IMG/VR virus record: IMGVR_UViG_2908567220_000003
Reading direction: 5' to 3' (one strand)
From: a virus
Taxonomy: Duplodnaviria > Heunggongvirae > Uroviricota > Caudoviricetes
DNA length: 61,488 nt
The notes under the pieces are model-generated. The model was not told the origin of the DNA. It worked only from the letters and a program-made list of their open reading frames with translations, and ran no database searches. Of this stretch, positions 4,493 through 45,008 are shown in pieces. The position numbers were made by a program, and so were the translations under genes. Each line of letters begins with the position of its first letter. The first letter of the stretch is position 1.

Positions 4493-4512
4493 CGCATATG
4501 GGTTATGAAAAT

Positions 4513-9341: not shown

Positions 9342-9346
9342 GGGAT

Positions 9347-23372: not shown

Positions 23373-23813
23373 TCAGTCATCATCGCCATACATCCAGTCG
23401 TTACGATGTGCCGCCCGTTCTTCCTGCTCGCGATACATGCCCGCCTTACGGTTCGCTTTCGTGGCTGGATCTTCCCGTGTCGTCTTACGGTTGTGGCACG
23501 TCTGGCACAATGCCTGGTGGTTCCACTCAGGCCAGAAGAGAACATCACCGCCGCCATTGATGGGAATGATGTGATCCACCACAAGAGCTGGCGTATAAAT
23601 CCCCTTAGCCAGACAACGCACGCATAACGGGTTTTTGCTCAGGTACAGGGCGCGGTATTTGTCCCACTGCCGGGAATACCCACGCGCGCGGCGGTGCCCC
23701 CGTCTGGCATCCTCTGCACGCCATGCAGCCCGCCTGTGCTCTTCACACTTGCCGGACTTCACGCGCTTATTACAGCCCGGCTCAGTGCATCGCCTTAATG
23801 GTTGCCACGGCAT
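23373..23813 (-). CDS. HNH endonuclease (packaging-associated, satellite copy)
   Basis: 146-aa ORF with Cys-rich HNH motifs (CHNRKTT), directly upstream of terS; ATG verified. Confidence 0.8.
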   Translation of the reverse strand: MPWQPLRRCTEPGCNKRVKSGKCEEHRRAAWRAEDARRGHRRARGYSRQWDKYRALYLSKNPLCVRCLAKGIYTPALVVDHIIPINGGGDVLFWPEWNHQALCQTCHNRKTTREDPATKANRKAGMYREQEERAAHRNDWMYGDDD

Positions 23814-24112
23814 CAGTACACCCCCACATCACGATAAACCGACCAGAGCGCAGAAATAGCCATAGGCAGTTCAGACTGTTCCACAGGTGAAACCGCTTCC
23901 CTGTTCTCGTACAGGAAAGCGATGTACATCAGGCAACCAACACGTATTGCCGGGGTAAATTCCAGCCCGTCTTCAAAACGTTTCCCGATATGCTTCTGGC
24001 AGGCTTCCAGCGCCGCATCGGTATACATTTTCAGAAGTTCGCCTTCTCCGGAAAAGTCATCAAGGCGAAGATGTGCCCTGACTTCATCAGGTGTAATTTT
24101 GTCTTCACTCAT
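23813..24112 (-). CDS. gp6-like head-tail connector protein (satellite copy)
   Basis: ATG at 24112 (MSEDKITPDEVRAHLRLDD) with AGGTGA RBS inside track ORF 23813..24199. Confidence 0.55.
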   Translation of the reverse strand: MSEDKITPDEVRAHLRLDDFSGEGELLKMYTDAALEACQKHIGKRFEDGLEFTPAIRVGCLMYIAFLYENREAVSPVEQSELPMAISALWSVYRDVGVY

Positions 24113-25319
24113 CTTTTTCACCTTTAATTTCCACAGTCTGCTTCCATGCCTGGCTGAACTCGTCGCCACCTTCACGCGGCGGCATTCCCTCACGCTCACG
24201 GGCTTCGTTCGGATTCATGATCCCGTTCTTAATCCCTTTCTCATACGTGGCGTAACGTTCGGTAGGGGTGGCGCGCAGTAAATCGGCTGAATCAAACTCA
24301 ACCAGATAACGGGTACCAGGTACGGGAGAAGCCACCAGCAAAGCGGCCTTGATTTGCTGTTCGAAGTTCGCCAGCCACGGACGCATTGTCATAGTCAGAA
24401 ACGCGCGGCTTGCCTCACTGAAATTGCTGTAGGTGCTGTTGCTGTATTCCTGAAGAAAAATCGGCGACACGTTGAACATACGGGCAATGTCTTCAATGGA
24501 GAAGCGACGGGAGGCCAGCCATTCAGCATCCTGGTTACTCATTCCCAGTTGCTTGTAATCCATGCCCCCTTCAAGGATTGGCGTTTTTCCGGCATTTTTC
24601 GCCCCCTTGTAGCGTTCCAGTGCGTCTAATGCCTGTTTACCTTTCACGCCGTCCAGCCATTCGCCTGACGTGATAATCCCTGCCGCCATCATGCCATCTT
24701 TCATAATGCTGGCTCCGTGGCGCTGTTGAGCAAGGCCAAGCCCCAGCGCCTCACGGCAAATCGTGACAGGGGAGCGCCCCAGAAAGCCATCATCCGAGGC
24801 ATAGCGGAGATGCAGAACTTCTTCCTGTAAATACGTGCGCACCGTTCCTGTACAGGGTTCGGTGATGGTATAGCGGTATTTGTGTGCGCCTGTGCGTTCC
24901 GGTACAACACACCCCGGCGCATAAGGATGAAGTGATTTTGGCTGCCCGTCCTGCCCCCACTCAATAACCGCATAGGCGTTACCGTTCAGCAGACAGTGAC
25001 GCATCATTGTGCGTTTAAACTGGTAAGGTGTCTGGCACGAATTAGGCTGCTCATTCAGCAGAATATCTACCGGATGACTGTCCAGCCATTCCCGCGCCTC
25101 CCTGCCCTTGTCATTACGTACCAGATACAGATAACACGGCATCGTGGCCACCGCCTCAGCGATGACAGAAACCGCGTTCATCACAGCAGGCAATGATTCA
25201 GCCGTCCCGGCAGAAACATATTCTCCGGATCCGGTATTCGGTACGCCGGACAGCGCCAGAAAATCATCAATGGACAGGTTACGTTGCTCGCTTTTTTTAC
25301 GACTAAAAGGCCACCACAT
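24105..25319 (-). CDS. portal protein, HK97 family (satellite copy)
   Basis: track ORF 24105..25409; ATG at 25319 just after protease stop. Confidence 0.85.
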   Translation of the reverse strand: MWWPFSRKKSEQRNLSIDDFLALSGVPNTGSGEYVSAGTAESLPAVMNAVSVIAEAVATMPCYLYLVRNDKGREAREWLDSHPVDILLNEQPNSCQTPYQFKRTMMRHCLLNGNAYAVIEWGQDGQPKSLHPYAPGCVVPERTGAHKYRYTITEPCTGTVRTYLQEEVLHLRYASDDGFLGRSPVTICREALGLGLAQQRHGASIMKDGMMAAGIITSGEWLDGVKGKQALDALERYKGAKNAGKTPILEGGMDYKQLGMSNQDAEWLASRRFSIEDIARMFNVSPIFLQEYSNSTYSNFSEASRAFLTMTMRPWLANFEQQIKAALLVASPVPGTRYLVEFDSADLLRATPTERYATYEKGIKNGIMNPNEAREREGMPPREGGDEFSQAWKQTVEIKGEKDE

Positions 25320-25320
25320 A

Positions 25321-25881
25321 TCACAACCCCGCCAGTTCAGCCCAGCGATGACGATTATTTCCTGCCGGGCGTAATTCAGGGTGCTGTGCAAACAACGAAC
25401 GGTGGGCAATCTCCACGCCAGATTCTGGATAAGCAGGCATCGACGTTATTGTGATTTCTCGGAGTTCAGCGGCGGTTACGGTACGCAAATACGGTTTTTG
25501 CGCGATATTCCATTCTTCGCATAATGCGCGAAAGCCAAAGCTCATTCCTGTAATGTCGCCACGCGACACCAGCGTGAGCACATCTTTTCCAAGCTGGGTA
25601 TCAGGCGGTGTCAGTTCAAAACGTAGCCCGGTGTTGTCCCCAGTCAGTACCAGAGTGCCGGATTTGGTGCGCCCCAGCAGTTGGGTATAGTCATGCTCAT
25701 ACAGGCAGCGCACATCATTACCCGCCGCCAGATAGTCAGCAAAAGCCCCCGGCGTGAACTGTTCGCGGAATTCGTCCCAGATAATTTCTGAAAGGCTGTT
25801 CCAGCGAACGGCATACCCCACCAGCTTTTTATTGCTGGCGGTCAGTTCAGATGTGCGGATTTCAAAATCGGTGTTTTTCAT
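25321..25881 (-). CDS. prohead protease, HK97 family (satellite copy)
   Basis: 186-aa ORF between MCP and portal; ATG verified. Confidence 0.85.
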   Translation of the reverse strand: MKNTDFEIRTSELTASNKKLVGYAVRWNSLSEIIWDEFREQFTPGAFADYLAAGNDVRCLYEHDYTQLLGRTKSGTLVLTGDNTGLRFELTPPDTQLGKDVLTLVSRGDITGMSFGFRALCEEWNIAQKPYLRTVTAAELREITITSMPAYPESGVEIAHRSLFAQHPELRPAGNNRHRWAELAGL

Positions 25882-25935
25882 CGGTGTACTCCATAAAGCT
25901 GAAAAAGGAGGCCGCAGCCTCCTCCTTACTCATGA

Positions 25936-27105
25936 CTAGCCAGCTTTCATTTCCAGAATTTTGATGGCGTTTGAATCCACCACACCACCGCCCAGATATT
26001 TATCCGTGTGGACCTTGTAGAATCCGGGTTCAGTAATGTTGTCCGGTCGGGTGCGAATCCCTGTTACATGATCAACGATGAAATAACCACGACTGAAATC
26101 GCCAACCGCTAGCGGTGCTTTTCCTGCGCCGATGTCCGGCATGGACTCCAGGCAGAAAACAGGACGACCAAGCAACATATCCGGCGCACCTTCTTTAAGG
26201 CTGTCGCGCCAGATATAATCGCCATTCTCATTTTTCAGCTTCTGTAGTGTCCCTGCCGTGCCCGAGTTCATCACCCAGACGGCATTTTTGCGGTATTTCG
26301 CTTTCAGCTTGTAGAGAATGTCGATCAGTTCGTCCGCTGTAATGGCGGTTCCACTTGCCGCTACCACTTTTTCAATGGTGCCAAAAGCGCGGGTTTTGTC
26401 ACTGGTCGCCGCACGGGTGTAAGCCATGAAGCCTTTCGGCTTGCCGTTACCGTCGCCATTAACAAAATCATCCTCTTCGGTGCTGGCGAACGTGTCGGCA
26501 ATTTCGGAGGATAACCAGCCCAGAATATCCACCTCTGAAAAATCCAGGATTTCCTGCGTGGTTTTCGGGTAGGCGTAGATCGGATTCAGCTTGATGGTTA
26601 CACGTTCAATTTTCGGGGTGTTGGTTTCACTACGTGCGCTGCCTTCTGTGCCTCGTCCTACAGTTGCGCCGCCAGTGGAAACCAGTTTCTGAAACTCATT
26701 TGATTTTGCGGTCTTCACGGTCGCGATCACGCGCATAACACTGTCATCCTGTAGCTGGCGCATGACTTCGCGATCAAGCTCAGGAATTACGGTATATCCG
26801 CCATCCCTGCCGCTGTCAGTGCTGGTGGTCAGTGATCGCACATCTCCGGTTACGATGTAGTTACGCAATTCATCAGATGATAATTTCTGGATGCCCGTTC
26901 CTGGCTTGCTGCGTTCTTCATCAGCCACAGACTCGAGGCGGGAAATTTCTGTGTCGAGGGAATCGGCTTTTGCACGCAGTTCATCAAACTGTTTGCCCTC
27001 GTCATCGTTCAGGCTGCGGTTTTCACTGTCGGCTTTTTCCAGCAGGGATCGCATCTGGTTTTTCAGGGCGGTTTTTTGCTGGCGGAGTTCGATTAATTTC
27101 TTCAT
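25936..27105 (-). CDS. major capsid protein, HK97 family (satellite copy)
   Basis: 389-aa ORF with coiled-coil delta domain; ATG verified; paralog of 16633..17850. Confidence 0.85.
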   Translation of the reverse strand: MKKLIELRQQKTALKNQMRSLLEKADSENRSLNDDEGKQFDELRAKADSLDTEISRLESVADEERSKPGTGIQKLSSDELRNYIVTGDVRSLTTSTDSGRDGGYTVIPELDREVMRQLQDDSVMRVIATVKTAKSNEFQKLVSTGGATVGRGTEGSARSETNTPKIERVTIKLNPIYAYPKTTQEILDFSEVDILGWLSSEIADTFASTEEDDFVNGDGNGKPKGFMAYTRAATSDKTRAFGTIEKVVAASGTAITADELIDILYKLKAKYRKNAVWVMNSGTAGTLQKLKNENGDYIWRDSLKEGAPDMLLGRPVFCLESMPDIGAGKAPLAVGDFSRGYFIVDHVTGIRTRPDNITEPGFYKVHTDKYLGGGVVDSNAIKILEMKAG

Positions 27106-27391
27106 GAAGGTTTTCTCGTATTGGTTAAGATTCAGGACGTGAAACCAACACGGAGGGAGCGCCGCCCGACACTCTCGGCATCTCGCAGATCAACCCGGCA
27201 TCGCGCAGGGGGTCAGGCGGCATTGTGGCGGCTCACGTCTGAGTGCCACACGCCAACATATACATAAAAATCAGTATGTAAACACCTGTCAGTAAGGCCG
27301 AACAACCACGAAAAAACACGAACAAATAATTTACAAAAGAAGTAAACCATGGCCTATTATTGCTACCTCTGACTACAACAAAGGACGCATC

Positions 27392-27898
27392 ATGAATTTA
27401 AGCGCAATGGTATACCCTGATACTTTCATAATTAATGGCGAATCATTTAAAGGTAAAAGAAACGCAAAAGAAAACAAGGTATTAATTCCATATACAAATG
27501 AACCGGAAGTAACTATTGGTCAACACATTATCCAGTGTGTCGGTAAAAACGAGATAAATCTAAAAATTATAGATATGAAGTTGCTTCCCAATGGAACCCT
27601 CAGACAGGGAACCAACCATCCAAATATGTTGACGCTCTATATTGAAAATATCACGGGAAATGAACATATGACGCCACCTAAAAGTAATACATTTAACATT
27701 GGTTCAATTAGTGGTAATCAAGTGCAGATAGGTGAGCATAACCATATGCTGGTAAACATCAGCATCACTGAACTGGTTGAAAAAGTCTCTAAATCGGGGG
27801 ATGTACAAGCCAAATCAGTATTAAAGCAGTTACTGGAAAACAGTACCGTTGCCAGCATTGTTGGGGCTGGCGCAAGTGCCTTAATAGGCTTACTGTAA
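27392..27898 (+). CDS. hypothetical protein with C-terminal hydrophobic tail (satellite accessory gene)
   Basis: 168-aa ORF, ATG with AAAGGA RBS, AT-rich, opposite strand to the rest of the element. Confidence 0.5.
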   Translation: MNLSAMVYPDTFIINGESFKGKRNAKENKVLIPYTNEPEVTIGQHIIQCVGKNEINLKIIDMKLLPNGTLRQGTNHPNMLTLYIENITGNEHMTPPKSNTFNIGSISGNQVQIGEHNHMLVNISITELVEKVSKSGDVQAKSVLKQLLENSTVASIVGAGASALIGLL

Positions 27899-27904
27899 AA
27901 AAAT

Positions 27905-27924
27905 GGCCTGGATTTTACCAGGCC
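27905..27924. terminator. bidirectional Rho-independent terminator between convergent genes
   Basis: stem GGCCTGG / CCAGGCC with 6-nt loop, flanked by A7 upstream and T-rich downstream. Confidence 0.6.
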
Positions 27925-27933
27925 TTTATCATT

Positions 27934-28182
27934 TTACCGTTTCACGGGATCCCGCATTCTGCTTCTTAGTTTCCACAGGTATTCGATCATCGCTTCCACC
28001 TGCTCACGGTTGGTTGCGAAAATTTCCCCGGTCAGTGAGCTGCGCAGAAAATCATGATGATCCACAACAAACAACGCATCGGAAGAAAGCAGACGGCGAT
28101 ATTTTTTTGCTGTCGTGGTTTCCAGATCATCAAAACCATGAAACTTTTTATGTTGCTGAACTTCTTCAAATGTCACAGGCAT
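27934..28182 (-). CDS. hypothetical protein
   Basis: ATG at 28182 with AGGAGG RBS inside track ORF 27934..28221. Confidence 0.5.
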   Translation of the reverse strand: MPVTFEEVQQHKKFHGFDDLETTTAKKYRRLLSSDALFVVDHHDFLRSSLTGEIFATNREQVEAMIEYLWKLRSRMRDPVKR

Positions 28183-28227
28183 GTTTCCTCCTGCTACCAC
28201 GATACCAGAAACAGTTAACAACCGTTA

Positions 28228-28512
28228 TCAATTATCCCCTTTTTTTTTCGGGTAGTTCCTGAACATCTCACCGCCAGGTTTCTGTAAGCCCATCCCGGTA
28301 TGTGTGCGGTTTATGGCCTCTTTCAGTATTCCGAAATTATCCGGTATGACTGGTTGGCGCGCTGCCTTACGGATACATTCCGCGCGACGCTTTGCCACCT
28401 GTTCGCGCTCCTTGTCAGTGCTCACCAGCCACATAACATCAGCCCAACGTGCCGCCGCTCTCCGGTACAGCCCTTTAGCCTCCAGTTCTTCCGCTTTGCT
28501 GTCTTTAATCAT
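28228..28512 (-). CDS. PerC-family transcriptional activator-like protein
   Basis: ATG at 28512 (MIKDSKAEELEAKGLYRRAAARW); assignment from remembered PerC N-terminal motif. Confidence 0.5.
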   Translation of the reverse strand: MIKDSKAEELEAKGLYRRAAARWADVMWLVSTDKEREQVAKRRAECIRKAARQPVIPDNFGILKEAINRTHTGMGLQKPGGEMFRNYPKKKGDN

Positions 28513-28527
28513 GCTGTACCTCACTGC

Positions 28528-28953
28528 TTAAAACGGTATCCCGTCCCCGTACGGATCATCGTGCTGGCCTGTCTGTTGTTTTGCCCTGTTCAGTGCGTCA
28601 GTAGCCTGGCCCTGCTGGCCTTTTTTGCCGCCCGGTCGCGCCGTTCGCGCACTGATTACGCTGTCTGCGATGACCTGCCAGCCCTGCCGCATTTCGCCGT
28701 TCTGGCCTGTCCACTGGCTTACCTGCATGTTACCCGCCACACTCACCAGTTCGCCTTTCTGGTGTTTTGCCAGTGCATCGGCCTGTCTGCCAAACGCCAG
28801 GACGGATAACCACATCGTCGCCGTTCCGTCATCTGCCTGGCTGCACGGCAGGGGAACCGCCATACTCGCCATAGCCATTTGTGTCCCCTTGCTGGTGGTC
28901 TTTAACTGCGGGTCAGCCACCAGCCGCCCGTAAGCCGCTATCTGTGCTGTCAT
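28528..28953 (-). CDS. ssb: single-stranded DNA-binding protein (SSB-like OB fold with C-terminal DIPF tip)
   Basis: 141-aa ORF ending GDGIPF, Gly/Gln-rich linker; ATG verified. Confidence 0.65.
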   Translation of the reverse strand: MTAQIAAYGRLVADPQLKTTSKGTQMAMASMAVPLPCSQADDGTATMWLSVLAFGRQADALAKHQKGELVSVAGNMQVSQWTGQNGEMRQGWQVIADSVISARTARPGGKKGQQGQATDALNRAKQQTGQHDDPYGDGIPF

Positions 28954-29017
28954 GCTGTCTGTTCTCCGGTTTTAACGTTGATTGTTACGCTTGTTTACAC
29001 CCTTACGGTGAAATCCT

Positions 29018-29140
29018 GCGGGTTATAATCGCACTTTTGCGGGTTATAACTGCCGTTTTGCGGGTTACGTGCGGGTTACTGATTTCCTTTTTATTCATAC
29101 AGTTAATGCACTTATACACAGGATAACCCGCATAACCCGC
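29018..29140. repeat. iteron cluster 2 (candidate replication origin): four direct GCGGGTTA(T/C) repeats, AT-rich spacer, two inverted copies
   Basis: direct copies at 29018, 29039, 29060, 29071; AT-rich 29081..29120; inverted ATAACCCGC at 29123 and 29132; downstream of primase/helicase gene. Confidence 0.7.
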
Positions 29141-29163
29141 AACTTTTCACCTCACACAGGGGG

Positions 29164-31284
29164 TTAATCTTCTGCCTCAGGCTGGAACATCAGCACGTAA
29201 AAAACATGCTGCTTCCCCCCAATTTTGCCGAGCGCCTTTTTCTTGTAACGGCGATCGTTACCCGCTTCCAGCATTCCGGCAGCACTCAACGCGCGGGCAA
29301 AGTGAGACGGATTAAATCCCTGTGCTATCTCACCCTCAAATACATGCGGGAACGTGTAAAAACGGAACTCGTCATCTTCGTTTCTGATACTCCCCTTTCT
29401 GTATCCGGCAAGCTCTTTAATCGGTAAATCACGCTCGTCGGTGTTGGGCCACGGAAGGTATCTGCTGAATCCGAACGACGCTAAAAAAGCCTCTGCCTGT
29501 TCAACCATCTGTTTAAACTCCCTGTTACCCGTGCCGAACTCCTTCACCCAGGCATTAAAATTATGCTGAATGGCATCGCGGCACGCCTGAACATCCCAAC
29601 CAGTAATATGGACGGAAAGCACCAGCGCCGACTCCAGCATGGCGAATCGTTCCCCCACACGGTGAACCTGTTCGCCGTAACTCTCCGGTATCAGGTTGCG
29701 CCACCGTTCACGGCATGCCCTTACCGTATCCTTTGCCTCCTGCTGGTGGTCTGCCAGCCATTTAACCCATTCACGCCCCGCCGCCCCGTGATTTTCTGTC
29801 CAGGCATCCTTTAACGCGTCTGCGTGTGCCTTTCCGGTGCTGTATTCGTGAAACTGCGTGGCTTTTTCCATTGGCACGTTAAGCAGGCGGACAAGCTGCC
29901 CCGCCTTGACTTTTATCCCCTCCGTTTTGAGGAATGTCTCAACGTCCATTTCTCCGGTGCTGATTGCCACCGTGCGCCAGTGTTTGATCTCCCTGTTGCC
30001 GCCGTCCTTCGCCCCCTGTAATTTCCCCGAACCGTTAAACAGCGTATAAGCCGACGTGGACACTTCCCGCGCGTTTCCGGCCTGACCTATTTCATCCAGG
30101 GGTAATAGCCCGTCATTGTGCGCCTCTGCCTCGTTGGCGATGCCTAACGCTGTACCGTACCAGGTCAGCCGTTGCGCGTCCGGCTCTCCCCATAAACTGG
30201 ATGCGATGTTCTGTGTGGTGGTTTTCCCTGCCGATGACTGTTCGAAAAGATGTACCCCGAAGCCGTCAGCACCCACCAGCCCGATTAATGGTGCGGATAA
30301 CGATACCGCCACACCCAGCATCATGGACGGATTACCACCAGCCAGCCGCGCAACGGTATCGCGCCAGCCCTCCGCCGTTCCTGCCACAGAATAGCCATTA
30401 ACGGCAGCCGTTTTTCCGGTAAACAGGATCGGTTTTTCAGACTCACCAATGACTGAACCGTCCGGCATGATGTACGCACCAAAATGCCAGCCCGTTGTTG
30501 TGCTTAACTGCCATTCCTCATGGTTTCCGCTTAACTGCATCCAGTCAGCCAGGATAGCCCTGTATTTGCCGTTAGTTGTTACGTTAAGGCCGTGGTCTTT
30601 CAGCAACCGCCAGCCGTCACGGTCGCCAATGCCCCCGCACGGAACCGCCATTGTGATGACTTCATGGTTTGCGGGTTTCTTCCAGCGCATCACGCGGTAA
30701 TGCTCTTTGCCGATTGTCCCCGTTCCCAGTAGTTCAAGCGGGGAACATAACCACGTCTCAGGCCGGATAATTTCGCCTGACTGCTTGTCAACTTTGGGCG
30801 TTACCCAGAAAACACCATCGGCGCGACTTTCAACGCGGGGCTTTAATTCATCATCGCCCTGGCTTTCTGTGATTTTTTTCTTTAAGGGCAACACCAGACT
30901 TTCCCCGCGCTCGTATTCGTCTTTCAGCCGGGCAAGCTGCGGTGTCCAGTCCTCCAGTAGTTCACCGTTCTCGTCACAAAAACTGGCTTCCTTAACACCA
31001 GCCACTGCCAGCAGGGTTTCAATCTGTAACGCCTGTCTGTCATCCAGCTTTCCGGCACGTCTGACCATGGCGCGTAACCGTCCATCATCCACAATACGCA
31101 GGTTTTCCAGATTACCCAGGTCACGCCGCCCGAGATAAACAGGTGGTATTTTGTCGCCGCGCTTTCTGGCTTCTCCGCCCTGCATGTAATGCTCTGCGTG
31201 GCTGTATGCGTCATCCCCCGCAAAAATCACTGCATCCTCGCCTTTATCTTTCGGTAACAGTTTTACGTTCGGTGCCAGTTTCAT
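29164..31284 (-). CDS. replication primase/helicase (DUF927-type P-loop NTPase)
   Basis: 706-aa ORF with Walker A (SSAGKTTT); ATG verified; adjacent to iterons. Confidence 0.65.
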   Translation of the reverse strand: MKLAPNVKLLPKDKGEDAVIFAGDDAYSHAEHYMQGGEARKRGDKIPPVYLGRRDLGNLENLRIVDDGRLRAMVRRAGKLDDRQALQIETLLAVAGVKEASFCDENGELLEDWTPQLARLKDEYERGESLVLPLKKKITESQGDDELKPRVESRADGVFWVTPKVDKQSGEIIRPETWLCSPLELLGTGTIGKEHYRVMRWKKPANHEVITMAVPCGGIGDRDGWRLLKDHGLNVTTNGKYRAILADWMQLSGNHEEWQLSTTTGWHFGAYIMPDGSVIGESEKPILFTGKTAAVNGYSVAGTAEGWRDTVARLAGGNPSMMLGVAVSLSAPLIGLVGADGFGVHLFEQSSAGKTTTQNIASSLWGEPDAQRLTWYGTALGIANEAEAHNDGLLPLDEIGQAGNAREVSTSAYTLFNGSGKLQGAKDGGNREIKHWRTVAISTGEMDVETFLKTEGIKVKAGQLVRLLNVPMEKATQFHEYSTGKAHADALKDAWTENHGAAGREWVKWLADHQQEAKDTVRACRERWRNLIPESYGEQVHRVGERFAMLESALVLSVHITGWDVQACRDAIQHNFNAWVKEFGTGNREFKQMVEQAEAFLASFGFSRYLPWPNTDERDLPIKELAGYRKGSIRNEDDEFRFYTFPHVFEGEIAQGFNPSHFARALSAAGMLEAGNDRRYKKKALGKIGGKQHVFYVLMFQPEAED

Positions 31285-31580
31285 TTTTTACCTCTGGATG
31301 CGCTGAGCATGCTTTTTATTTTCTTAATATTTTCCCGTGCTTTTTCCCTGCTGGTGGGCTTACCGCGTGTTGCGTTCTGTACCAGAGAAAAATCACGCCG
31401 GAACTGATAAACAGGCATCACGCAGTCATAGCCGTACCCATCACGGCGGTAAGTAACGCACCGTCCCGCCACGCTTTTAATCGTTACCGTGCCGCCGTAG
31501 TTATCCCGGAAAATATCGCCGGGGCGGATTTCAGGCCGAGCGGGGCCGCTGGCAGTAAAGCCAGAAATTTTCTGTTTCAT
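31281..31580 (-). CDS. hypothetical protein
   Basis: 99-aa ORF, ATG verified, stop overlaps primase start. Confidence 0.4.
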   Translation of the reverse strand: MKQKISGFTASGPARPEIRPGDIFRDNYGGTVTIKSVAGRCVTYRRDGYGYDCVMPVYQFRRDFSLVQNATRGKPTSREKARENIKKIKSMLSASRGKK

Positions 31581-31585
31581 GGTTT

Positions 31586-31819
31586 TTATTTCCCGGTGTG
31601 TTGCTCTTTATATCTGTCGTGCAAGATGTCTATTTCTTGCAGTTCATTTATTACAGGCTCAAGAAGCGTTATTAATGCTGTTGCAATATTGCTGTTGCGT
31701 TTATCTCTTTCATTATCGCCAAGCGTTTCAAGCCATAAGCGCAATATTTCAAGCATGTTTTCACTGTAAGCAAGTGCGCTGTATGCATGATCTACTGTGT
31801 CATTGTAAATATCATGCAT
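31586..31819 (-). CDS. hypothetical protein
   Basis: 77-aa ORF, ATG verified. Confidence 0.4.
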   Translation of the reverse strand: MHDIYNDTVDHAYSALAYSENMLEILRLWLETLGDNERDKRNSNIATALITLLEPVINELQEIDILHDRYKEQHTGK

Positions 31820-31822
31820 GGC

Positions 31823-32023
31823 TCACCCCCCCTGAATATTCGCGTTAATCATTCCGACACGCTCTGCGAGTTCCTGTAATGATTCCCTTGTTGCGACAAT
31901 TGCTTCATCTGGCAGGTGGTAATTACTCACCACGCGACCTTTATCCACATTGACTAGCAACTGCCCGGTGAATTTCTCACGAAACTGGATGCGGTTAAGG
32001 TCGGTAAGTGACAGGTTAATCAT
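31823..32023 (-). CDS. hypothetical protein
   Basis: 66-aa ORF, ATG verified. Confidence 0.4.
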   Translation of the reverse strand: MINLSLTDLNRIQFREKFTGQLLVNVDKGRVVSNYHLPDEAIVATRESLQELAERVGMINANIQGG

Positions 32024-32219
32024 GGTGTACCCCCTGACGAATACGGGCGGCGAATACCATCACGCAGCCAGCCGGGGATTGCTGGCGTGCTTCCTGTTCG
32101 CTGGTGGCCTCAATGGTAATCACGCGCGGTTGTGCCGTGCTCAGGGCGATAAAACGCCAGATATATTTATTCAGGTTGTGCGAGTCCCGCCCTTGCGGGT
32201 GTGTGGTATGATTTCTCAT
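32016..32219 (-). CDS. hypothetical protein, first gene of leftward operon from the divergent control region
   Basis: ATG at 32219 with GAGGT RBS; only the 3-prime 67 codons of track ORF 32016..33089 are plausible. Confidence 0.4.
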   Translation of the reverse strand: MRNHTTHPQGRDSHNLNKYIWRFIALSTAQPRVITIEATSEQEARQQSPAGCVMVFAARIRQGVHHD

Positions 32220-32316
32220 AGCTACCTCGATACTCTTGCTATCGTTGGTGGTTAGACGCCCTGCATGTGTTGCGAGCACTGCGGGGCGTTGCTTAATTTG
32301 AGTGACAAAACTCAAA

Positions 32317-32395
32317 CTGTGCGCACAGATTAAAATCATGTGTGCGCACATGTCAATACTTAACATCTCATTTTTTTTGCTGTATTGTGTGCGCC
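32317..32395. promoter_or_regulatory. divergent promoter/operator region with TGTGCGCACA palindromes
   Basis: perfect 10-bp palindromes at 32319..32328 and 32341..32350 (23 bp centre to centre) plus TGTGTGCGCC half-site near 32386. Confidence 0.6.
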
Positions 32396-32424
32396 CATAA
32401 AGTCCATTTAAGTGAGGTGCATCA

Positions 32425-32622
32425 ATGTCTAGCGGTAACACAAACAACAAATCAGCAAAGAAAAATATTCGATTCCCACATGAGCTTATAGATGGGATTG
32501 ATGCCAGCGTTGAACAAGAAAAATTAACTAATCCTAGTGCTAATTTTTCCGCATGGGTCTTAGATGCCTGTGGACGCAAATTAAAATATGAACAGCGCCG
32601 GAAGGCCAAAGAATCAGAATAA
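32425..32622 (+). CDS. ribbon-helix-helix-type DNA-binding regulator (candidate satellite master repressor)
   Basis: 65-aa ORF, ATG with GTGAGGTG RBS; NIRFPHELIDGIDASVEQ pattern fits beta-strand plus helix of RHH fold. Confidence 0.45.
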   Translation: MSSGNTNNKSAKKNIRFPHELIDGIDASVEQEKLTNPSANFSAWVLDACGRKLKYEQRRKAKESE

Positions 32623-32664
32623 TCACTATCAGCGCCGTGGTGTGAGTAACTACGGCGCATTGCT

Positions 32665-32853
32665 ATGCAGGACAACACAATGACCGATAAAGAATTGACC
32701 AAAACATTATCACCGACACGGAAAAGACGGCGCAGAAAGATAGAGCATGAATCAGAAAGATTCGCACCTTGTTCGTTTGCTCTTGAGAAATTCCTTAAAG
32801 AGCGCAGGAAAAAGCTCTCGTTGCAAACCTTGGAACGAACCAAATCTGACTGA
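32665..32853 (+). CDS. hypothetical small basic protein
   Basis: 62-aa ORF, ATG verified; followed by GC hairpin and T-run. Confidence 0.35.
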   Translation: MQDNTMTDKELTKTLSPTRKRRRRKIEHESERFAPCSFALEKFLKERRKKLSLQTLERTKSD

Positions 32854-33233
32854 TCACATTGCCCACCAGCCGCAAATGTGGCATTGTTGGTGATGCTTTT
32901 GTTTTCCCTTGTTCCCACTGGCGACCCTTTTGCGGTCGCCTTTGTTTTGCCTGTTATCCGGCAATAGTGGCGCTTCGTCACCTGTCTGATATAATTCCAC
33001 AGCTTATATTCATTTTTTGCGCAGTAGGTTAATTGTTCGCAAGGGCGCTCCGGCAACGGGGCGCTTTTTGTTTTTACCCACCAGCACAATAAAAATCTTC
33101 ATTTTCCATTTTTGTAAAATTTCATGCTTTCCGGACGACTGGTCATATGTCATTTTTTAGCAGAAGATTTTGCCTTGCTGGTGGGTAGCTTCCCGGTCAA
33201 CACGATGTACCGTATAATCAACACCGCGTGTGG

Positions 33234-33812
33234 TTACTGAATACGCTCACCAAAGTAAAACTCAGGCTGGTATTCACGTATCAGCCTTTTTTCTTCTTCC
33301 TCCAGCTCACGCTTTTTGCGCTTACATGCCTGTAGCTCCCTCCCCTTCTCACTGGCACTTATCTGGTATTGCTCTTTGCGGCGGGAAAAATCCTGTAATG
33401 CGCCCCACGGGATACCATAAGCCCCCGTTTTTCTGATACCCGGTATCACATTTCTGAATACCCAGTTACTGAAACGATGAGCAAATGTGCCAGGCGTCGT
33501 TGCTTTGCGGCTGCGGGCTATTAGTTTGTAGAAACCTGATTCGGAGATAATGCTCATATTCTGATTTCCTCCGGGGGTGTAAGTTAAATTTACTCCCTTT
33601 TCGTCATCATCAAGCATCTGCAACGCCGTACGCGAATTGGTCAGTTCCAGCGCAGCACAAACATCCTTTGCAACAAACCACGGATCGCCGTTTAGATACA
33701 CCACACGAACATCCACGCCATCAAAGCGCAGAACGACCAGATCACGAATATCACAGAATTTTTTCACATGACGTGCGTCACCCTTGCCCGTCACGGCAAT
33801 ATTTTTATTCAT
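33234..33812 (-). CDS. Bro-N domain protein (antirepressor-like)
   Basis: 192-aa ORF with N-terminal Bro-N-like region and C-terminal charged coiled coil; ATG verified. Confidence 0.65.
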   Translation of the reverse strand: MNKNIAVTGKGDARHVKKFCDIRDLVVLRFDGVDVRVVYLNGDPWFVAKDVCAALELTNSRTALQMLDDDEKGVNLTYTPGGNQNMSIISESGFYKLIARSRKATTPGTFAHRFSNWVFRNVIPGIRKTGAYGIPWGALQDFSRRKEQYQISASEKGRELQACKRKKRELEEEEKRLIREYQPEFYFGERIQ

Positions 33813-33869
33813 TGCTTTTTACCTCACATACAAAAAACCCCGCATTGCGTGGTGCGGGGTTGTCGGTAA

Positions 33870-34148
33870 TTACTTATTGGCGTTTTTGTATGGGCTGTTT
33901 ACTTCCTTTACTCCTGGCGGATGCATAACCCACCAGAGCACATCAGAGAGCAACCAGGAAACAGACACTTTCCCTAAATGAGCACGAGCAGGAAATGCTC
34001 CCTCCTGTTCAAGTACCCAACGTCTGCTTCTTGAAAGCCCGGTACGATTGGCACACTCATGTTCGCGTATACGGCGATCATACGGTTCGCCATGATCTTT
34101 CAGAATCTGAATGCGTTCTTCGGGTGTAGGATAAATAAATTTTTGCAT
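33870..34148 (-). CDS. alpA: AlpA-family transcriptional regulator
   Basis: ATG at 34148 with AGGTGA RBS; motif GLSRSRRWVLEQEGAFPARAHLGKVSVSWLLSDV; downstream of integrase. Confidence 0.7.
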   Translation of the reverse strand: MQKFIYPTPEERIQILKDHGEPYDRRIREHECANRTGLSRSRRWVLEQEGAFPARAHLGKVSVSWLLSDVLWWVMHPPGVKEVNSPYKNANK

Positions 34149-34379
34149 AAAAATATCACCTATAAAAAAACCCGCCAAAAGACGGGTTGATTATATCTCA
34201 TTTAATTTAGCTCAGGGTTTCCATTCACCTTTTACCCATTCCAGCACCTCAGATAAGCGCCAGACTTTTGTTTGTGGGCCAATACATATTTTTCGTAACC
34301 GTCTCATTTAAACCGTCTTTCGCCTCCCTTTCCTGTTTCCGATACTAATGTCCATTTTCGCAGTAAAGGGACATTTAAG

Positions 34380-35030
34380 ATGAATGCACGAAAAGCGGTA
34401 CTGGCAGACAATCCGGAATTGATCCTGCGTGTGCTACAGCTGAGATTTGACGAGTCACTGTCGTACCCGCGCATTTCTGCGCAGACCGGTGTCAGCAAAA
34501 CCGCCATTTTTTCTCTGGTGAGGCGATTTCACCAGGTATTCACTGACTGGCCTCTTTCCGGTGAATATTCCTGCGGGCAACTGGCCCGGGCTCTTTTCCC
34601 GGGGCGATACCCTTCAGCCCCGACCGTGACTCAGCCTGTGAAAGCAGAGAAACCCCGCCGGAACCGATTTTCACCGGAGTTTAAATGGAGACTGGTTCAG
34701 CAAACTCTTTTACCCGGTGCCTGTGTCGCACAAATAGCTCGAGAGAATGGAATTAACGATAACCTGCTCTTTAACTGGCGGCATCTCTGGCGTAACGGTG
34801 GCCTGCAACCGCCCGGCGAACATGAAACATCGCTACTTCCCGTGACGTTAACTCCGGAGCCGGATAATAAAATCCCGGCACCAGTGCAGATACCTGAACA
34901 GATAAATACACTGCCAGACAGTCTGTGCTGCGAGCTGGTTCTGCCGGCCGGAACTCTCAGGCTGAAAGGTGAACTGACACCGGCGTTATTACAGACACTT
35001 ATCCGCGAAATGAAAGGGAGCAGCCACTGA
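34380..35030 (+). CDS. IS66-family accessory protein (orf1, HTH)
   Basis: 216-aa ORF, first of three in the IS. Confidence 0.7.
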   Translation: MNARKAVLADNPELILRVLQLRFDESLSYPRISAQTGVSKTAIFSLVRRFHQVFTDWPLSGEYSCGQLARALFPGRYPSAPTVTQPVKAEKPRRNRFSPEFKWRLVQQTLLPGACVAQIARENGINDNLLFNWRHLWRNGGLQPPGEHETSLLPVTLTPEPDNKIPAPVQIPEQINTLPDSLCCELVLPAGTLRLKGELTPALLQTLIREMKGSSH

Positions 35031-35377
35031 TGATATCTCTCCCTGCCGGTTCGCGTATCTGGCTGGTTGCCGGTATCACCGATATGCGAAATGGCTTTAA
35101 CGGCCTGGCCTCAAAAGTTCAGAACGTCCTGAAGGATGACCCGTTCTCCGGGCATCTGTTCATCTTCCGCGGACGCCGGGGTGACCAGATAAAAGTGCTG
35201 TGGGCTGACAGTGACGGACTGTGCCTCTTCACCAAACGCCTGGAGCGGGGCCGCTTCGTCTGGCCGGTCACCCGCGATGGAAAGGTTCACCTTACTCCGG
35301 CTCAGTTGTCCATGCTTCTCGAAGGCATCGACTGGAAGCACCCGAAACGAACGGAACGCGCTGGCATCCGCATATAA
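35030..35377 (+). CDS. tnpB: IS66-family TnpB (orf2)
   Basis: 115-aa ORF, ATGA overlap with orf1, typical IS66 orf2 size and sequence. Confidence 0.8.
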   Translation: MISLPAGSRIWLVAGITDMRNGFNGLASKVQNVLKDDPFSGHLFIFRGRRGDQIKVLWADSDGLCLFTKRLERGRFVWPVTRDGKVHLTPAQLSMLLEGIDWKHPKRTERAGIRI

Positions 35378-35396
35378 CCCGTTGTAAAGTGAGGAT

Positions 35397-36968
35397 ATGG
35401 ACACCTCACTTGCTCATGAGAATGCCCGCCTGCGGGCACTGTTGCAGACGCAACAGGACACCATCCGCCAGATGGCGAAATACAACCGCCTGCTCTCACA
35501 GCGGGTGGCGGCTTATGCTTCCGAAATCAACCGGCTGAAGGCGCTGGTTGCGAAACTGCAGCGCATGCAGTTCGGTAAAAGCTCAGAAAAACTTCGCGCT
35601 AAAACCGAACGGCAGATACAGGAAGCCCAGGAGCGAATCAGCGCACTTCAGGAAGAAATGGCGGAAACGCTGGATGAGCAATATGACCCGGTACTGCCAT
35701 CCGCCCTGCGCCAGTCTTCAGCCCGTAAGCCGTTACCGGCCTCACTTCCCCGTGAAACCCGGGTCATCCGGCCGGAAGAGGAATGCTGCCCGGCCTGTGG
35801 TGGTGACCTCAGTCCTCTGGGGTGTGATGTGTCAGAGCAACTGGAGCTTATCAGCAGCGCTTTTAAGGTTATCGAAACACAACGTCCGAAACTGGCCTGT
35901 TGCCGGTGCGACCATATCGTGCAGGCACCAGTACCTTCAAAACCCATTGCACGCAGTTATGCCGGAGCGGGGCTTCTGGCTCATATCGTCACCGGGAAGT
36001 ATGCAGACCATCTGCCGTTATACCGCCAGTCAGAAATATACCTTCGTCAGGGCGTGGAACTGAGCCGCGCCACGCTGGGGCGCTGGACCGGTGCCGTTGC
36101 TGAACTGCTGGAGCCGCTGTATGACGTGCTGCGCCAGTATGTGCTGATGCCCGGTAAAGTCCATGCGGATGATATCCCCGTTCCGGTCCAGGAGCCGGGC
36201 AGTGGTAAAACAAGAACTGCCCGGCTGTGGGTCTATGTCCGTGATGACCGTAACGCCGGTTCACAGATGCCCCCGGCGGTCTGGTTCGCGTACAGCCCGG
36301 ACCGGAAAGGTATCCATCCACAGAATCACCTGGCCGGTTACAGCGGTGTGCTTCAGGCAGATGCTTACGGTGGTTACCGGGCGTTATACGAATCCGGCAG
36401 AATAACGGAAGCCGCGTGTATGGCCCATGCCCGGAGAAAAATCCACGATGTGCATGCAAGAGTGCCAACCGACATCACCACGGAAGCCCTGCAGCGTATC
36501 GGTGAACTGTATGTCATCGAGGCAGAAGTCCGGGGATGTTCAGCAGAACAGCGTCTGGCAGCAAGAAAAGCCAGAGCGGCTCCACTGATGCAGTCACTGT
36601 ATGACTGGATACAGGAACAGATGAAAACACTGTCGCGTCACTCGGATACGGCAAAAGCGTTCGCATACCTGCTGAAACAGTGGGAGGCCCTGAACGTGTA
36701 CTGCAGTAATGGCTGGGTGGAAATCGACAACAACATCGCAGAGAACGCCTTACGGGGAGTGGCCGTAGGCCGGAAAAACTGGCTCTTCGCGGGTTCCGAC
36801 AGCGGTGGCGAACATGCGGCGGTGTTGTACTCGCTGATCGGCACATGCCGTCTGAACAATGTGGAACCAGAAAAATGGCTGCGTTACGTCATTGAGCATA
36901 TCCAGGATTGGCCGGCAAACCGGGTACGCGATCTGTTGCCCTGGAAAGTTGATCTGACCTCTCAGTAA
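35397..36968 (+). CDS. tnpC: IS66-family transposase (orf3)
   Basis: 523-aa ORF with leucine-zipper-like N-terminus and Cys-rich motif. Confidence 0.8.
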
Positions 36969-37122
36969 ATATCAATACGGTTCTGGCGAGCCGCTTACTA
37001 TTTTTCGTGGAAATTTTCCTTCCTTTTCAAGTAACGATCTGTGTCTCCTGCCAAGAGCGGTTAACCATGCACATTCATCTTCCTTAATCATCCTGTCGAT
37101 TGTTTCATCATTTTCAAGTTCT

Positions 37123-38346
37123 TCACGCGTAACTATTTGAATCATTACTGTCACCACTAATTTGCTTATTCAGATAGTCGTACCACCAGTTCATAGCTTC
37201 TTTTTTTCTGTCCATATACTGGCTTCTGTTATAAACCCCGGCAACACCGCCTAATGTGTGCCCAAGCAACTGTTCAACCACATTATGTTCAAAACCATGA
37301 TCACTTAGTTTTGTGGCAAACACTCTTCGCATATCATGCGCCGTCCATTTCTCCGAGTGTTTCATCCTTTTCCATGTCTTACCGATAGTTACGCTTGCCG
37401 TACACTGACGCATATCAAACCCAATCACATTTTCTTTGTTACCTGTTATTTTTTTTAACGTAACTAACCAGTTAAACATGCCATCAGGAATCGGTCTGAT
37501 TATTTCCCTGCCATTTTTGCTATGATCAGCGGGAACGCGCCATAATTTCTTATCAAAATCCCACTCTACCCAGGACGACAGTAATACTTCTGACAGTCGA
37601 CAACCAAAAACTACCAGGAAACGTAAAATAATTCGGTTTTCATATGATAATTCGTGATTGTCATAATCAGTATTAATACTTCGCCATAAATCTCTGATTT
37701 CATCATCTGTTAAAACCCTGCTTCTTCGCGCAGACTTTTTTCCCACATCACAGACCTCAAGATCATCAATTTCATGACTAATCGCGTATTTTCTTACCCT
37801 ACAAAATTTAAGCGCCTGTTTTGATATACGCAACAAAGCTCCGGCCTGTACAGGTGCTACTTTTTTTATTTTGTCAAAACACTTAATCCACATAGATATA
37901 GAGCAATCACTAAGTGGTACATGACCAATCACCGGATAAATATGTTTACCAAAGCACTGCCTGATATGTTCTGCTCCCCTACGCTTATCCATTGCATAAT
38001 TATCAAGCCAGTATTCAAGTGCCTCACGAACGGTAACAGGTTGCAAGGTGGCTTCCCGTTCAATTTTTATCTGAATCCGTGGATCTCTGCCCTCCGCAAG
38101 CCAAGTTCGACACTGATCGCGCATCTCTCTCGCTGATTTGAGACTCAGATCAGGATATTTTCCAAGTGTCAGCCAGATGGGCGCGGTTTCCCTTCCCGCC
38201 AGTCTGTAAAAGAAAACAAAACTAACACATCCGTATTTACTGACCCGTACCGAAAGCCCGTTACCATCAGCGATGGTTTCCTGCCTCTCACTCCTGCGTC
38301 CAAGCAGGGAACGAAGTTTTTTATCGCTCAGTTTGTTTAGCGCCAT
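37123..38346 (-). CDS. int: tyrosine integrase, P4-type (satellite)
   Basis: ATG at 38346 (MALNKLSDKKLRS) inside track ORF 37123..39546; C-terminal R..H..GH..Y catalytic pattern; adjacent to right junction. Confidence 0.85.
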   Translation of the reverse strand: MALNKLSDKKLRSLLGRRSERQETIADGNGLSVRVSKYGCVSFVFFYRLAGRETAPIWLTLGKYPDLSLKSAREMRDQCRTWLAEGRDPRIQIKIEREATLQPVTVREALEYWLDNYAMDKRRGAEHIRQCFGKHIYPVIGHVPLSDCSISMWIKCFDKIKKVAPVQAGALLRISKQALKFCRVRKYAISHEIDDLEVCDVGKKSARRSRVLTDDEIRDLWRSINTDYDNHELSYENRIILRFLVVFGCRLSEVLLSSWVEWDFDKKLWRVPADHSKNGREIIRPIPDGMFNWLVTLKKITGNKENVIGFDMRQCTASVTIGKTWKRMKHSEKWTAHDMRRVFATKLSDHGFEHNVVEQLLGHTLGGVAGVYNRSQYMDRKKEAMNWWYDYLNKQISGDSNDSNSYA

Positions 38347-38518
38347 GTGATTTATAACCCGTTTTTGCAATACACAGTGCAATACACAAATGATGAAAAC
38401 AGCCAGAACCTTCCAGAAAAAACAAAAACGACGAACAAGAAAAAAATCTTTTTCTTTCATTTGGTTACTAAAAAAATCAGGACAGGTCGCACTGTTGTTA
38501 CGGCGTGATGTTACTTTC

Positions 38519-39546
38519 TTGGTAAAAAAATTCACCCGCGCAGAGACCTGCTCCTTCGCTTTTTTCGCCAGACGACGCAGATCATCCCAGCGTTTACAGA
38601 TGCCCAGGCCAGGATTCGCTTTCTGCCAGACCGTTTCATCAAACGGATCATCTCCCTCATCGAGCGTGTAAATGATCGCAAAGTAGGAGTCGTCTTTTAC
38701 CGCGCCCTCCACGTCGCTGTTATAGCCTCGCAATACCTTAATGGCGTAATCGCGCTGCTCGTAGCAAATCCCTTCCTTGTTAAAGCCAGCCGTGGTGATG
38801 CCAAATAACAGAGACTGCAGACGGGCACCGGTTGCCGTTTCCAGAACGTCCCACACGTCACGGGTTTTATGAGCATGCAGCTCATCAATAATGGCACAGT
38901 GGATGTTCAGACCGTCCAGGTTGTTTGCATCCGAGGAAAGCGGTTCAAATTTTGATGCGCTCTGCTCCTGGTAAATCGCCAGCTTGTTGAAGTCAAACAA
39001 CCGCCCGAGTGTCGACCGGGCTTTTCTGACCATATTTTTGGCGTCTTCAAACACAATTCTGGCCTGGTCACGCGTGGTTGCGGCTGAATACACCTCAGCC
39101 CCGCCTTCACCATCTGCCCCCGTCATATACAGACCGATACCCGATGACAGGGTTGATTTTGCGTTTTTACGGGCAACTTCGTTGTATGCTGTCCGGAACC
39201 GGCGCACCATCACCGGGCGTCCACTGCCATCGCTGCGCATGACAACTTCCCCGGTTTCTTCATTCACCAGCGGAATGACAAAACCAAAAATATTAATGAG
39301 GATAAACACATGCCAGTCCATCAACTCAATGGGCTGACCTGCCAGCGCCCCTTTCACATGGGGTACAAATTTGTAGAAATTAAGGATGTGCTGTGCACGA
39401 GGTTCACTGAAATAAATCCCCCGCTCTTCGCCGTACTTCAGATCATCAAGAAAACGCTGGCAGGCCAGACGGACAAATTCGCCAGCAACAATTTCTCCTG
39501 CAACAACACGTTCGGCGTAGCGGATCCCGTCAGCCACTTTTGCCAT
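38519..39546 (-). pseudogene. terL: terminase large subunit, N-terminal (ATPase) fragment of the interrupted prophage terL
   Basis: first ~345 codons of track ORF 37123..39546 align to N-terminal half of TerL 21083..22744 up to the FFTKK motif; ATG overlaps terS stop. Confidence 0.8.
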
Positions 39547-40028
39547 CAGTCTCTCGCTTTTAAAAGCTCTGCCAGCGGATCAACATCATCCGGTCCGGCG
39601 GTATTTACTTTCGCCCGGCTTGCCGGTGACATACCAAACTCTGCAAGCATCGCCCGAATCCGCTTCCAGGCATCAGCCTTCATCGCAGCAGCCGGGTGTG
39701 CCTTGATCAGCACATCGCCATTCTGCGTTTCCGTGCGGTAGGTATAACCCTCAACATCGAGTATTTCGCAGTGATGCCGGTATTCGGTGTAGGCTTCCAC
39801 CAGTAACTCGAGCGCACGTGCATCGAGCTGAGAAATGATCCCTTCCGCATTCAGCTCTTCCGCCATTCGCCTGAACCAGTACTTCCCCTGCGCCCCTAAA
39901 TGTTGCGGAATTTTAGGGAGACATTTTTCATCCTTTTTAGCGGTTTTTTTTGGGTCTTTAACGGGGCGCTTTGAGGGGTTGCCTCGTATCAAATGCAGGC
40001 GTGGCGGGGTTTTCAGGGGTCCTGACAT
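39546..40028 (-). CDS. terS: terminase small subunit, P27 family (prophage copy)
   Basis: 160-aa ORF directly upstream of terL N-fragment; ATG verified. Confidence 0.75.
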   Translation of the reverse strand: MSGPLKTPPRLHLIRGNPSKRPVKDPKKTAKKDEKCLPKIPQHLGAQGKYWFRRMAEELNAEGIISQLDARALELLVEAYTEYRHHCEILDVEGYTYRTETQNGDVLIKAHPAAAMKADAWKRIRAMLAEFGMSPASRAKVNTAGPDDVDPLAELLKARD

Positions 40029-44868: not shown

Positions 44869-45008
44869 TAAACCGTATAACAAACACTCAATCAATACTT
44901 AACAGAACTTTTATTTTTGACAAACATAAAATATTTTCAACAATATCCTGAGCCAGGTATATTTCAGTATAAGGCTCTGCCGGAAGGAATCTGGAAGAAT
45001 GAATATAG

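Follow-up and report, generated by a model that had tools for sequence, protein, structure and literature searches.

The RecBCD enzyme enters DNA at a double-strand end and degrades it until a Chi octamer is met from its 3' side, whereupon it nicks the DNA and loads RecA; the forms vulnerable to it are rolling-circle tails and linear genomes upon injection, and genetic elements without an inhibitor can compensate with Chi (PMC12315714; 10.1101/2021.07.08.451572). The closest described cases are the phages LLS and P1, in which Chi is the top octamer (PMC12315714) and occurs once per 1.86 kb and once per 1.90 kb, respectively, against once per 4.6 kb in Escherichia coli K-12 (Zheng et al. 2025, PMC12315714), LLS standing for a class of lambdoid phages that are rich in Chi and have no Rec module (PMC12315714, citing Bobay et al. 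2013); the Pseudomonas Chi sequence used is GCTGGCGC (PMC12315714). Among satellites, EcCIEDL933, the prototype of those phage-inducible chromosomal islands (PICIs) that form capsids, was described with genes for an integrase, AlpA, replication, capsid, protease, portal, connectors, HNH, TerS, and TerL in about 15 kb and without tail genes, in a paper that mentions neither Chi nor RecBCD (10.1101/2022.09.08.507074), and we found no link of PICIs or satellites to Chi abundance in the searchable literature. Here, we analyze a 380-bp non-coding zone (positions 32854 to 33233, hereafter the stretch) of a 61,488-nucleotide Caudoviricetes record, IMGVR_UViG_2908567220_000003 (the whole of which is called the window). 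It extends from the stop of orf62 (32853), an open reading frame (ORF) of 62 amino acids, to the stop of the minus-strand bro gene (33234), within an island that is, by the criteria of its gene content, a capsid-forming PICI-type satellite, and it holds three Chi octamers (GCTGGTGG), two of them inside a 12-bp inverted repeat.

For these octamers and this repeat, a preliminary description had proposed RecBCD protection of linear DNA, a pair of regulator binding sites, or a cis-acting site. Our analysis suggests that the three octamers are probably, if by no means securely, genuine Chi sites belonging to a RecBCD-directed enrichment of exact Chi that runs through the whole island and its family, the palindrome being a by-product. 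All three reported copies were verified as exact, and the features on which the argument rests are as follows.

20576 to 38518 (approximate ends), minus strand: capsid-forming PICI-like island, including an IS66 insertion, with 14 Chi in 15.2 kb
32863 to 32870, minus strand: Chi-1, 10 nt past the orf62 stop, within the 5' arm of the terminator-like hairpin t0
33078 to 33085, minus strand: Chi-2, within the left arm of the inverted repeat
33177 to 33184, plus strand: Chi-3, within the right arm of the inverted repeat

The preliminary description had suggested counting Chi beyond the stretch and against the host background, and on both scales the abundance proved real: the window carries 28 copies, when 2.4 are expected from dinucleotide-preserving shuffles, and the density in the island family is about four times that of the E. 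coli chromosome. In the island itself, once the IS66 element was removed (15,226 bp analyzed), the 14 Chi make this octamer the first in rank among 10,784, when Markov models of order 2 to order 4 expect 0.9–2.2 copies and the Poisson probability of such a count at 1 per 4.6 kb is 1e-5. The excess is specific to the exact octamer, as its 24 one-substitution variants average 0.83 copies with a maximum of 3. The same picture is found in the family, represented by 57 related loci fetched via the DUF4222 protein, where 668 Chi in 724 kb (0.92/kb) put Chi at rank 1 in 49 loci, against a mean of 42 and a maximum of 197 for the one-substitution variants, so that exact Chi is about 16 times commoner than these. 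The adjacent 20 kb of prophage late genes hold a single Chi. Within the prophage the distribution is itself uneven, with that one copy in the late head/tail region (window 1–20000) and 12 in the 23 kb of the early/nin/lysis side (38500–61488).

Seen on this scale, the local cluster loses its singularity: three Chi in 322 bp have a probability of 0.02 at the average density of E. coli and of 0.32 at the density of the island, on which account the cluster is best taken as a sample of the island-wide enrichment. The proposal of RecBCD protection is supported for the whole island and the family and not for the 320-bp stretch specifically. Close Chi pairs are, for their part, more frequent in the window than random placement would give (6 gaps of at most 100 bp, P=8e-4), and family-wide 81 such pairs are counted against 60 expected, a small excess dominated by one conserved pair inside the gene for the single-stranded DNA-binding protein (SSB); the inverted Chi pair in the 5' part of this gene is kept in 42 related loci. 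Close sites in the window lie at 28891–28924, 30273/30335, 46969/47021, 47554/47611, and 54466/54511.

Two of the three sites also show conservation of their own. Chi-1 sits in a conserved 13-nt core, TTGCCCACCAGCC, that is intact in 53 of 56 right-anchored and in all 31 left-anchored homologous copies, while being surrounded by at least nine different left contexts and at least four different right contexts, and in many islands a further Chi directly follows the stop codon of the ylcI-type gene, 18 nt upstream of Chi-1. Chi-3 lies within an almost invariant 36-nt block (33150–33185) common to two of the lineages described below, A and B. This conservation of Chi-1 and Chi-3 fits selection on these sites. 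With regard to flanking bases, a passage of PMC5041463 states that A or G is favored at nucleotides 4–7 after an active Chi and enhances activity; the 3' flank of Chi-2 (gtaAAAA) has purines at 4 of these 4 positions, that of Chi-1 (ATGT) at 2 of 4, and that of Chi-3 (GCTT) at 1 of 4.

The LLS class and P1 offer the nearest comparison. As in these phages, no other octamer of the island is as frequent as Chi, the density of which far exceeds that of the host, and the proposed logic is alike, the host RecBCD–Chi pathway being used in place of an own Rec system. No Gam, Abc2, or recombinase was recognized in the island by RefSeq annotation of the near-identical E. coli 042 copy or by a PHROG scan of small ORFs. 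Unlike them, the island is a satellite and not a phage, its family carries Chi at about twice their density (1 per 1.1 kb vs. 1 per 1.9 kb), and it encodes an SSB.

From the enrichment and its conservation, we infer that RecBCD acts on the island and that Chi brings a selective advantage, along the following lines. A minus-strand Chi would be active against RecBCD moving to higher coordinates and a plus-strand Chi against RecBCD moving to lower ones, so that Chi-1 and Chi-2 would confront RecBCD that arrives from the primase/capsid side, Chi-3 would confront RecBCD that arrives from the int side, and the 8:6 strand split of the island's Chi would cover both ends. Because sites lie on both strands about every kb, RecBCD entering either end would soon meet a correctly oriented Chi, stop degrading, and load RecA. 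This loading would protect the element and promote recombination yielding packageable concatemers, as proposed for the Rec-less Chi-rich lambdoid phages and P1. As to the inverted repeat, it would have arisen in one lineage, when two opposed Chi with similar flanks were joined at the junction between a small-RNA terminator and the non-coding tail of bro.

A broader and more tentative possibility, to which we lean less than to the contrary, is that E. coli PICIs and capsid-forming PICIs are the most Chi-dense replicons described (about 1/kb, on both strands) and would depend on the host RecBCD–Chi–RecA pathway for concatemers or for the survival of linear DNA, and possibly so as to keep RecBCD degradation products from feeding adaptation by CRISPR (clustered regularly interspaced short palindromic repeats), with the 13-mer TTGCCCACCAGCC being a selected cis element rather than a passenger. 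If the main reading, that of RecBCD-directed Chi sites, holds, the principle that an element lacking a recombination system of its own has many Chi would extend from lambdoid phages and P1 to satellites, and the higher density and two-strand layout would hint that satellite DNA is exposed to RecBCD in a different way. It would also offer a simple and testable handle on PICI replication and survival in RecBCD-positive cells, whether or not the helpers supply Gam, as well as a cheap sequence signature for finding such islands.

Several points weigh against reading the octamers as RecBCD-directed Chi sites. The Chi of LLS show a 20:3 strand bias and cluster at the right end, whereas those of the island are split 8 on the gene strand to 6 on the opposite one (395 vs. 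273 in the family) and no polarity switch or end clustering was found in the island or the family; for this reason, we treat the island as an element that works like the class defined by "no Rec module, high Chi" and do not count it among the lambdoid members. The loci of the family share ancestry and partly include flanking DNA, which makes their counts non-independent, and the null models (dinucleotide shuffles, Markov and Poisson expectations, one-substitution variants) include none that preserves codons for the 11 coding Chi. Several island ORFs without assigned function could hide an anti-RecBCD protein, and helper phages may supply Gam. Finally, conservation around Chi-1 and Chi-3 exceeds the octamer (a 13-nt core and a 36-nt block, respectively), which makes another or an additional function of these two sites possible.

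It is conceivable, albeit unlikely in our view, that the abundance of Chi is functionless and reflects codon or oligonucleotide usage or long chromosomal residence, the three intergenic copies being there by chance. Of the 14 Chi of the island, 11 are found within genes, and Chi contains the commonest Leu codon (PMC12315714); yet the non-coding Chi-1 is retained across many flank contexts, and Zheng et al., from a comparison of lambda with LLS, argue that codon usage is not enough by itself to account for the abundance of Chi (PMC12315714). An order-6 Markov model does bring the expectation to 12.6, near the observed 14, so overlapping 7-mers are common as well, but the one-substitution variants remain some 16-fold rarer than Chi. 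Likewise, if three sites in 322 bp are unremarkable at the density of the island, this density is itself about fourfold that of the chromosome towards which a long-resident island would ameliorate, and the adjacent late region of the prophage has 1 Chi in 20 kb.

The second alternative concerns the inverted repeat, the arms of which were verified as 100% complementary, with 89 nt between them where about 90 had been given.

33075 to 33086, minus strand: left arm, TACCCACCAGCA, holding Chi-2; the first sequence past the T-run of terminator t2
33087 to 33175, no strand assigned: AT-rich spacer of 89 bp, part of a non-coding module that follows this bro allele
33176 to 33187, plus strand: right arm, TGCTGGTGGGTA, holding Chi-3

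Under this explanation, which we regard as quite unlikely, the repeat would be a pair of binding sites for a regulator of the island (the BRO-N protein, an AlpA-type helix-turn-helix [HTH] protein, or YlcI) that loops or occludes the spacer and so controls transcription at a convergent junction, the match to Chi being incidental. The perfection of the repeat speaks for it: 12 of 12 positions match, with centers 101 bp apart, and, given two opposed Chi, the chance of four extra matching flank bases is about 0.007 (a post hoc figure, from family flank frequencies). Both arms recur in 27 IMG/VR contigs by exact-pattern scan, in units of 112 or 113 nt with 96–100% identity to the window, leaving aside a 1-nt deletion that one copy has, and the repeat is carried by 52 of the 230 complete E. 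coli genomes that match the region. However, the repeat-bearing copies share one low-diversity block of about 450 bp (33025–33475), with diverse flanks on both sides, that ties the C-terminal half of bro to the repeat module, and the copies of lineage A are at least 96% identical, so the agreement of their arms reflects recent common descent of the block and is uninformative on constraint. The fact that the module always travels with the C-terminal half of this bro allele can be said in favor of a regulator, but the BRO homologs of other genera go without it: no related downstream module was found beside the BRO-N homologs (53–63% identity) of Providencia, Erwinia, Serratia, Klebsiella, and other genera. 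Furthermore, the motif GCTGGTGGGYA occurs nowhere else in the window without mismatch.

More informative is the state of the repeat in diverged or rearranged relatives. Lineage B, to which E. coli IMT16316 and four IMG/VR loci belong, keeps the spacer and the right arm at about 85% identity, the arm reading TGCTGGTGGGGA with one base different and Chi intact, and has unrelated sequence in place of the left arm. This same comparison yields the near-invariance of the block 33150–33185, right arm included, across lineages A and B, which counts for a bound regulator. In the seven loci of lineage C, the bro allele is again the same one (94–97% identity) and the segment 32952–33233 (282 bp) is wholly lacking, with terminator t1 directly abutting the bro stop codon. 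Conservation of the inverted repeat had been named beforehand as a check, and as a pair it is not conserved: an operator pair should persist with both half-sites in diverged relatives that keep the regulated unit, but the left arm is missing from lineage B and both arms from lineage C. The proposed regulator binding-site pair is thus not supported, the repeat being confined to one near-identical block of about 450 bp, and the 12-bp inverted repeat is, on our best reading, an incidental, lineage-specific coincidence whose palindrome is not worth pursuing as an operator or an origin. Elsewhere in the module, variation among copies of the spacer is confined to 33132–33149, RNA structure in the spacer does not exceed that of shuffles (z-scores of -0.24 and +0.16 on the two strands), and a consensus scan of the spacer gave no promoter, the manual candidates being weak. 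Two small proteins were rejected here: for a 38-amino-acid plus-strand ORF (33124–33240), the variable sites number 5/8/9 at codon positions 1/2/3 and one copy is frameshifted, and for a 47-amino-acid minus-strand ORF (33010–33153), lineage B has an early stop in the minus frame.

Another explanation, very unlikely in the light of the junction counts, makes linkers of the short conserved sequences that bear Chi, RecBCD-stimulated exchange clustering at these places and the three sites marking and creating boundaries between satellite modules. It draws on the position of Chi-1 between at least nine left and at least four right contexts, on the extra Chi that many islands have after the ylcI-type stop, 18 nt before Chi-1, and on Chi-2, which is found exactly where about 180 of the 230 E. 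coli genomes sharing 33040–33076 diverge from the window. This last junction is, nevertheless, the natural end of the small-RNA terminator and forms a boundary in every lineage, with or without Chi: at least four other continuations follow the T-run of t2 in other islands, and the genomes diverge there because the left arm is merely the first sequence past this T-run, a variable junction. In a raw analysis of endpoints, 25.7% of junctions fell within 100 nt of Chi vs. 16.9%, but for 343 de-duplicated junctions and a same-span null the figures are 2.6% vs. 2.5% within 10 nt and 17.5% vs. 18.6% within 100 nt. The idea that mosaic junctions are generally marked by Chi was rejected in consequence, the apparent 1.5-fold excess having vanished after de-duplication and restriction of the null.

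The search for cis sites points to other parts of the island, where TAACCCGC forms the second most frequent octamer family, its copies falling, in both orientations, into two clusters of six.

29018 to 29140: iteron cluster 1 (TAACCCGC), directly past the DUF927 primase gene
20849 to 21001: iteron cluster 2 (TAACCCGC), between the island terL and the island end

By analogy with the ori and crr of P4, these clusters look like the origin of the island and a second cis replication site. That the repeat and its spacer are instead a cis site (replication origin, cos/pac, or small transposable element with terminal inverted repeats) is most improbable: the layout does resemble the origins of PICIs and of Staphylococcus aureus pathogenicity islands (SaPIs), in which repeats (iterons) flank AT-rich DNA, but the TAACCCGC iterons lie elsewhere, the repeat-bearing islands differ in their left flanks and the type of replicase changes in other family members, the cos site, which we take to lie beside terS in HNH/TerS systems and so here near 23.1–23.4 kb, is away from the repeat, and, of the 52 full-length E. 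coli copies, every annotation-listed one is in the same position beside bro. The likeness to SaPI/PICI origins and to P4 ori/crr is superficial, being that of short repeats around some 90 bp of AT-rich DNA; unlike those origins, the repeat has only two arms, which are inverted and match Chi, and the pair is not conserved in sister lineages. On these grounds (only two arms, iterons at two other sites, differing flanks of the repeat block), the repeat was rejected as a replication origin, and the cis-acting site of the preliminary description was not borne out, the repeat being unconserved and the iteron clusters using a different motif elsewhere. A miniature inverted-repeat transposable element, or any other element with terminal inverted repeats, was likewise rejected, as there is no target-site duplication, no match in the phage collection, and a single context (the 52 E. 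coli and 27 IMG/VR copies being one homologous block).

Apart from its Chi sites, the stretch is a convergent transcription-termination zone, in which three terminators are oriented rightward and a candidate small-RNA gene is located. A rightward unit made of the ylcI/ynfO-like gene and orf62 and a leftward int–alpA–bro unit converge on it.

32425 to 32853, plus strand: rightward unit (ylcI/ynfO-like gene and orf62), transcripts of which would enter the stretch
32425 to 32622, plus strand: ylcI/ynfO-like gene (DUF3950)
32665 to 32853, plus strand: orf62, 62-amino-acid ORF with a PHROG match
32857 to 32908, plus strand: terminator-like hairpin t0 past orf62 (32857–32895), followed by the U-rich tail CUUUUGUUUU
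32920 to 32950, plus strand: intrinsic terminator t1, GGCGACC...GGTCGCC (stem 32920–32940) and then the T-run TTTGTTTTG
32987 to 33076, plus strand: candidate small-RNA gene, with extended -10 TGATATAAT (32987–32995), inferred start near 33001, and terminator t2
33041 to 33068 (stem) and T-run, plus strand: terminator t2, which ends the candidate small RNA
33213 to 33296, plus strand: candidate cis-antisense RNA to the 3' end of bro, with -10 TATAAT (33213–33218) and a hairpin (33264–33287) followed by a T-run
33234 to 33812, minus strand: BRO-N domain gene (Pfam Bro-N, E 7e-20)

The fold of 32845–32955, which includes t0, has a z-score of -2.3, with an inner stem at 32869–32882 and Chi-1 in the 5' arm. 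The unit at 32987–33076 reads as a candidate small RNA of about 75 nt, the transcription of which we infer from its layout: its fold has a z-score of -2.2, and promoter, body, and terminator are found together in 28 distinct aligned variants from related islands, 27 of which keep the extended -10 TGATATAAT, the variant L034 having TGATATAAC. Its terminator stem exists in two versions, each internally complementary; these were misaligned with each other, which left RNAalifold uninformative on the alignment. A hairpin over the -35 region was also observed in two complementary versions, GTGGCGcttCGCCAC and TGGTCatttcGACCA. No Rfam family reaches its gathering score in the stretch (best match 19 bits, at chance level), and a search of island transcripts for a trans target gave -31.1 kcal/mol for its best non-self duplex, which does not surpass shuffled controls. 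The candidate RNA resembles the c4 RNA of P1 and the CI RNA of P4 (Rfam C4) in being short and running from a constitutive-type promoter to a terminator in a regulatory region near an icd-like gene, with which the early operon of the satellite begins, and differs from C4-type RNAs in lying on the opposite strand, about 800 bp from icd, and in having no Rfam match. On the side of bro, the TATAAT box and the strong hairpin hint at a short RNA complementary to the 3' end of the gene: the fold of 33222–33296 has a z-score of -3.4 and none of 200 shuffles folds as well, and the -35, read manually, is weak. A pseudogene annotated as "hypothetical protein, incomplete" by the Prokaryotic Genome Annotation Pipeline at 32618–33089 (minus strand) in E. 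coli 042, UMNF18, and PapRG-04-4 crosses orf62, two terminators, and the candidate small RNA on the antisense strand; it is probably spurious.

As for the setting of the locus, the window is 98–100% identical to part of the E. coli 042 chromosome by nucleotide comparison, and the host element is a lambdoid prophage whose terL (large terminase) is split by the island of about 15 kb, as seen from the RefSeq annotation of the 042 region, Pfam, and PHROG. The island genes were annotated from the 99.5%-identical region of E. coli 042 (RefSeq), with Pfam and PHROG scans. A repeat search found no att repeat of the island longer than 11 nt, and the ends of the island were for this reason set from the split terL. 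Reading from the integrase gene, the order is two AlpA-type HTH genes, the BRO-N gene, and the stretch, then the plus-strand ylcI/ynfO-like gene and orf62, an icd-like gene, DUF4222, the DUF927 primase (29164–31284), SSB, and PerC, and lastly the major capsid protein, prohead protease, portal, head–tail connector, HNH, TerS, and TerL; the main genes are all on the minus strand, there are no tail genes, and Pfam confirms the AlpA, DUF927, and Bro-N domains. This agrees with the gene content published for EcCIEDL933; unlike in that description, the island lies within a prophage terL and is interrupted by an IS66 element. Megablast matches the region from ylcI through orf62 and Chi-1 to the candidate small RNA in 1488 of the 5426 complete E. 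coli genomes, with a median of one and a maximum of six places in each, so islands of this family are very common in E. coli.

32318 to 32398: three TGTGCGCACA palindromes between the divergent ylcI/ynfO-like and icd-like genes, candidate operators
34297 to 36995: IS66-family element (orfA, orfB, transposase) between the AlpA-type genes, absent from E. coli 042

Through the TGTGCGCACA palindromes, the replication operon of the island may be under the control of the small DUF3950 protein or of an AlpA-type one. The IS66 element may have disconnected int and the upstream alpA-type gene from the remaining island. The terL halves of the resident prophage lie at about 19832–20575 and 38519–39547, with the island between them, and E. 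coli IMT16316 is arranged alike, with a truncated integrase gene beside a truncated terL. The satellite being inside a packaging gene of its potential helper, excision of the island could gate the packaging of the prophage. In the prophage part of the window, the RNAs comprise STnc100 (44120–44309), sok (50966–51137, with hokD nearby), DicF (56903–56954), and two tRNA genes (45008–45258).

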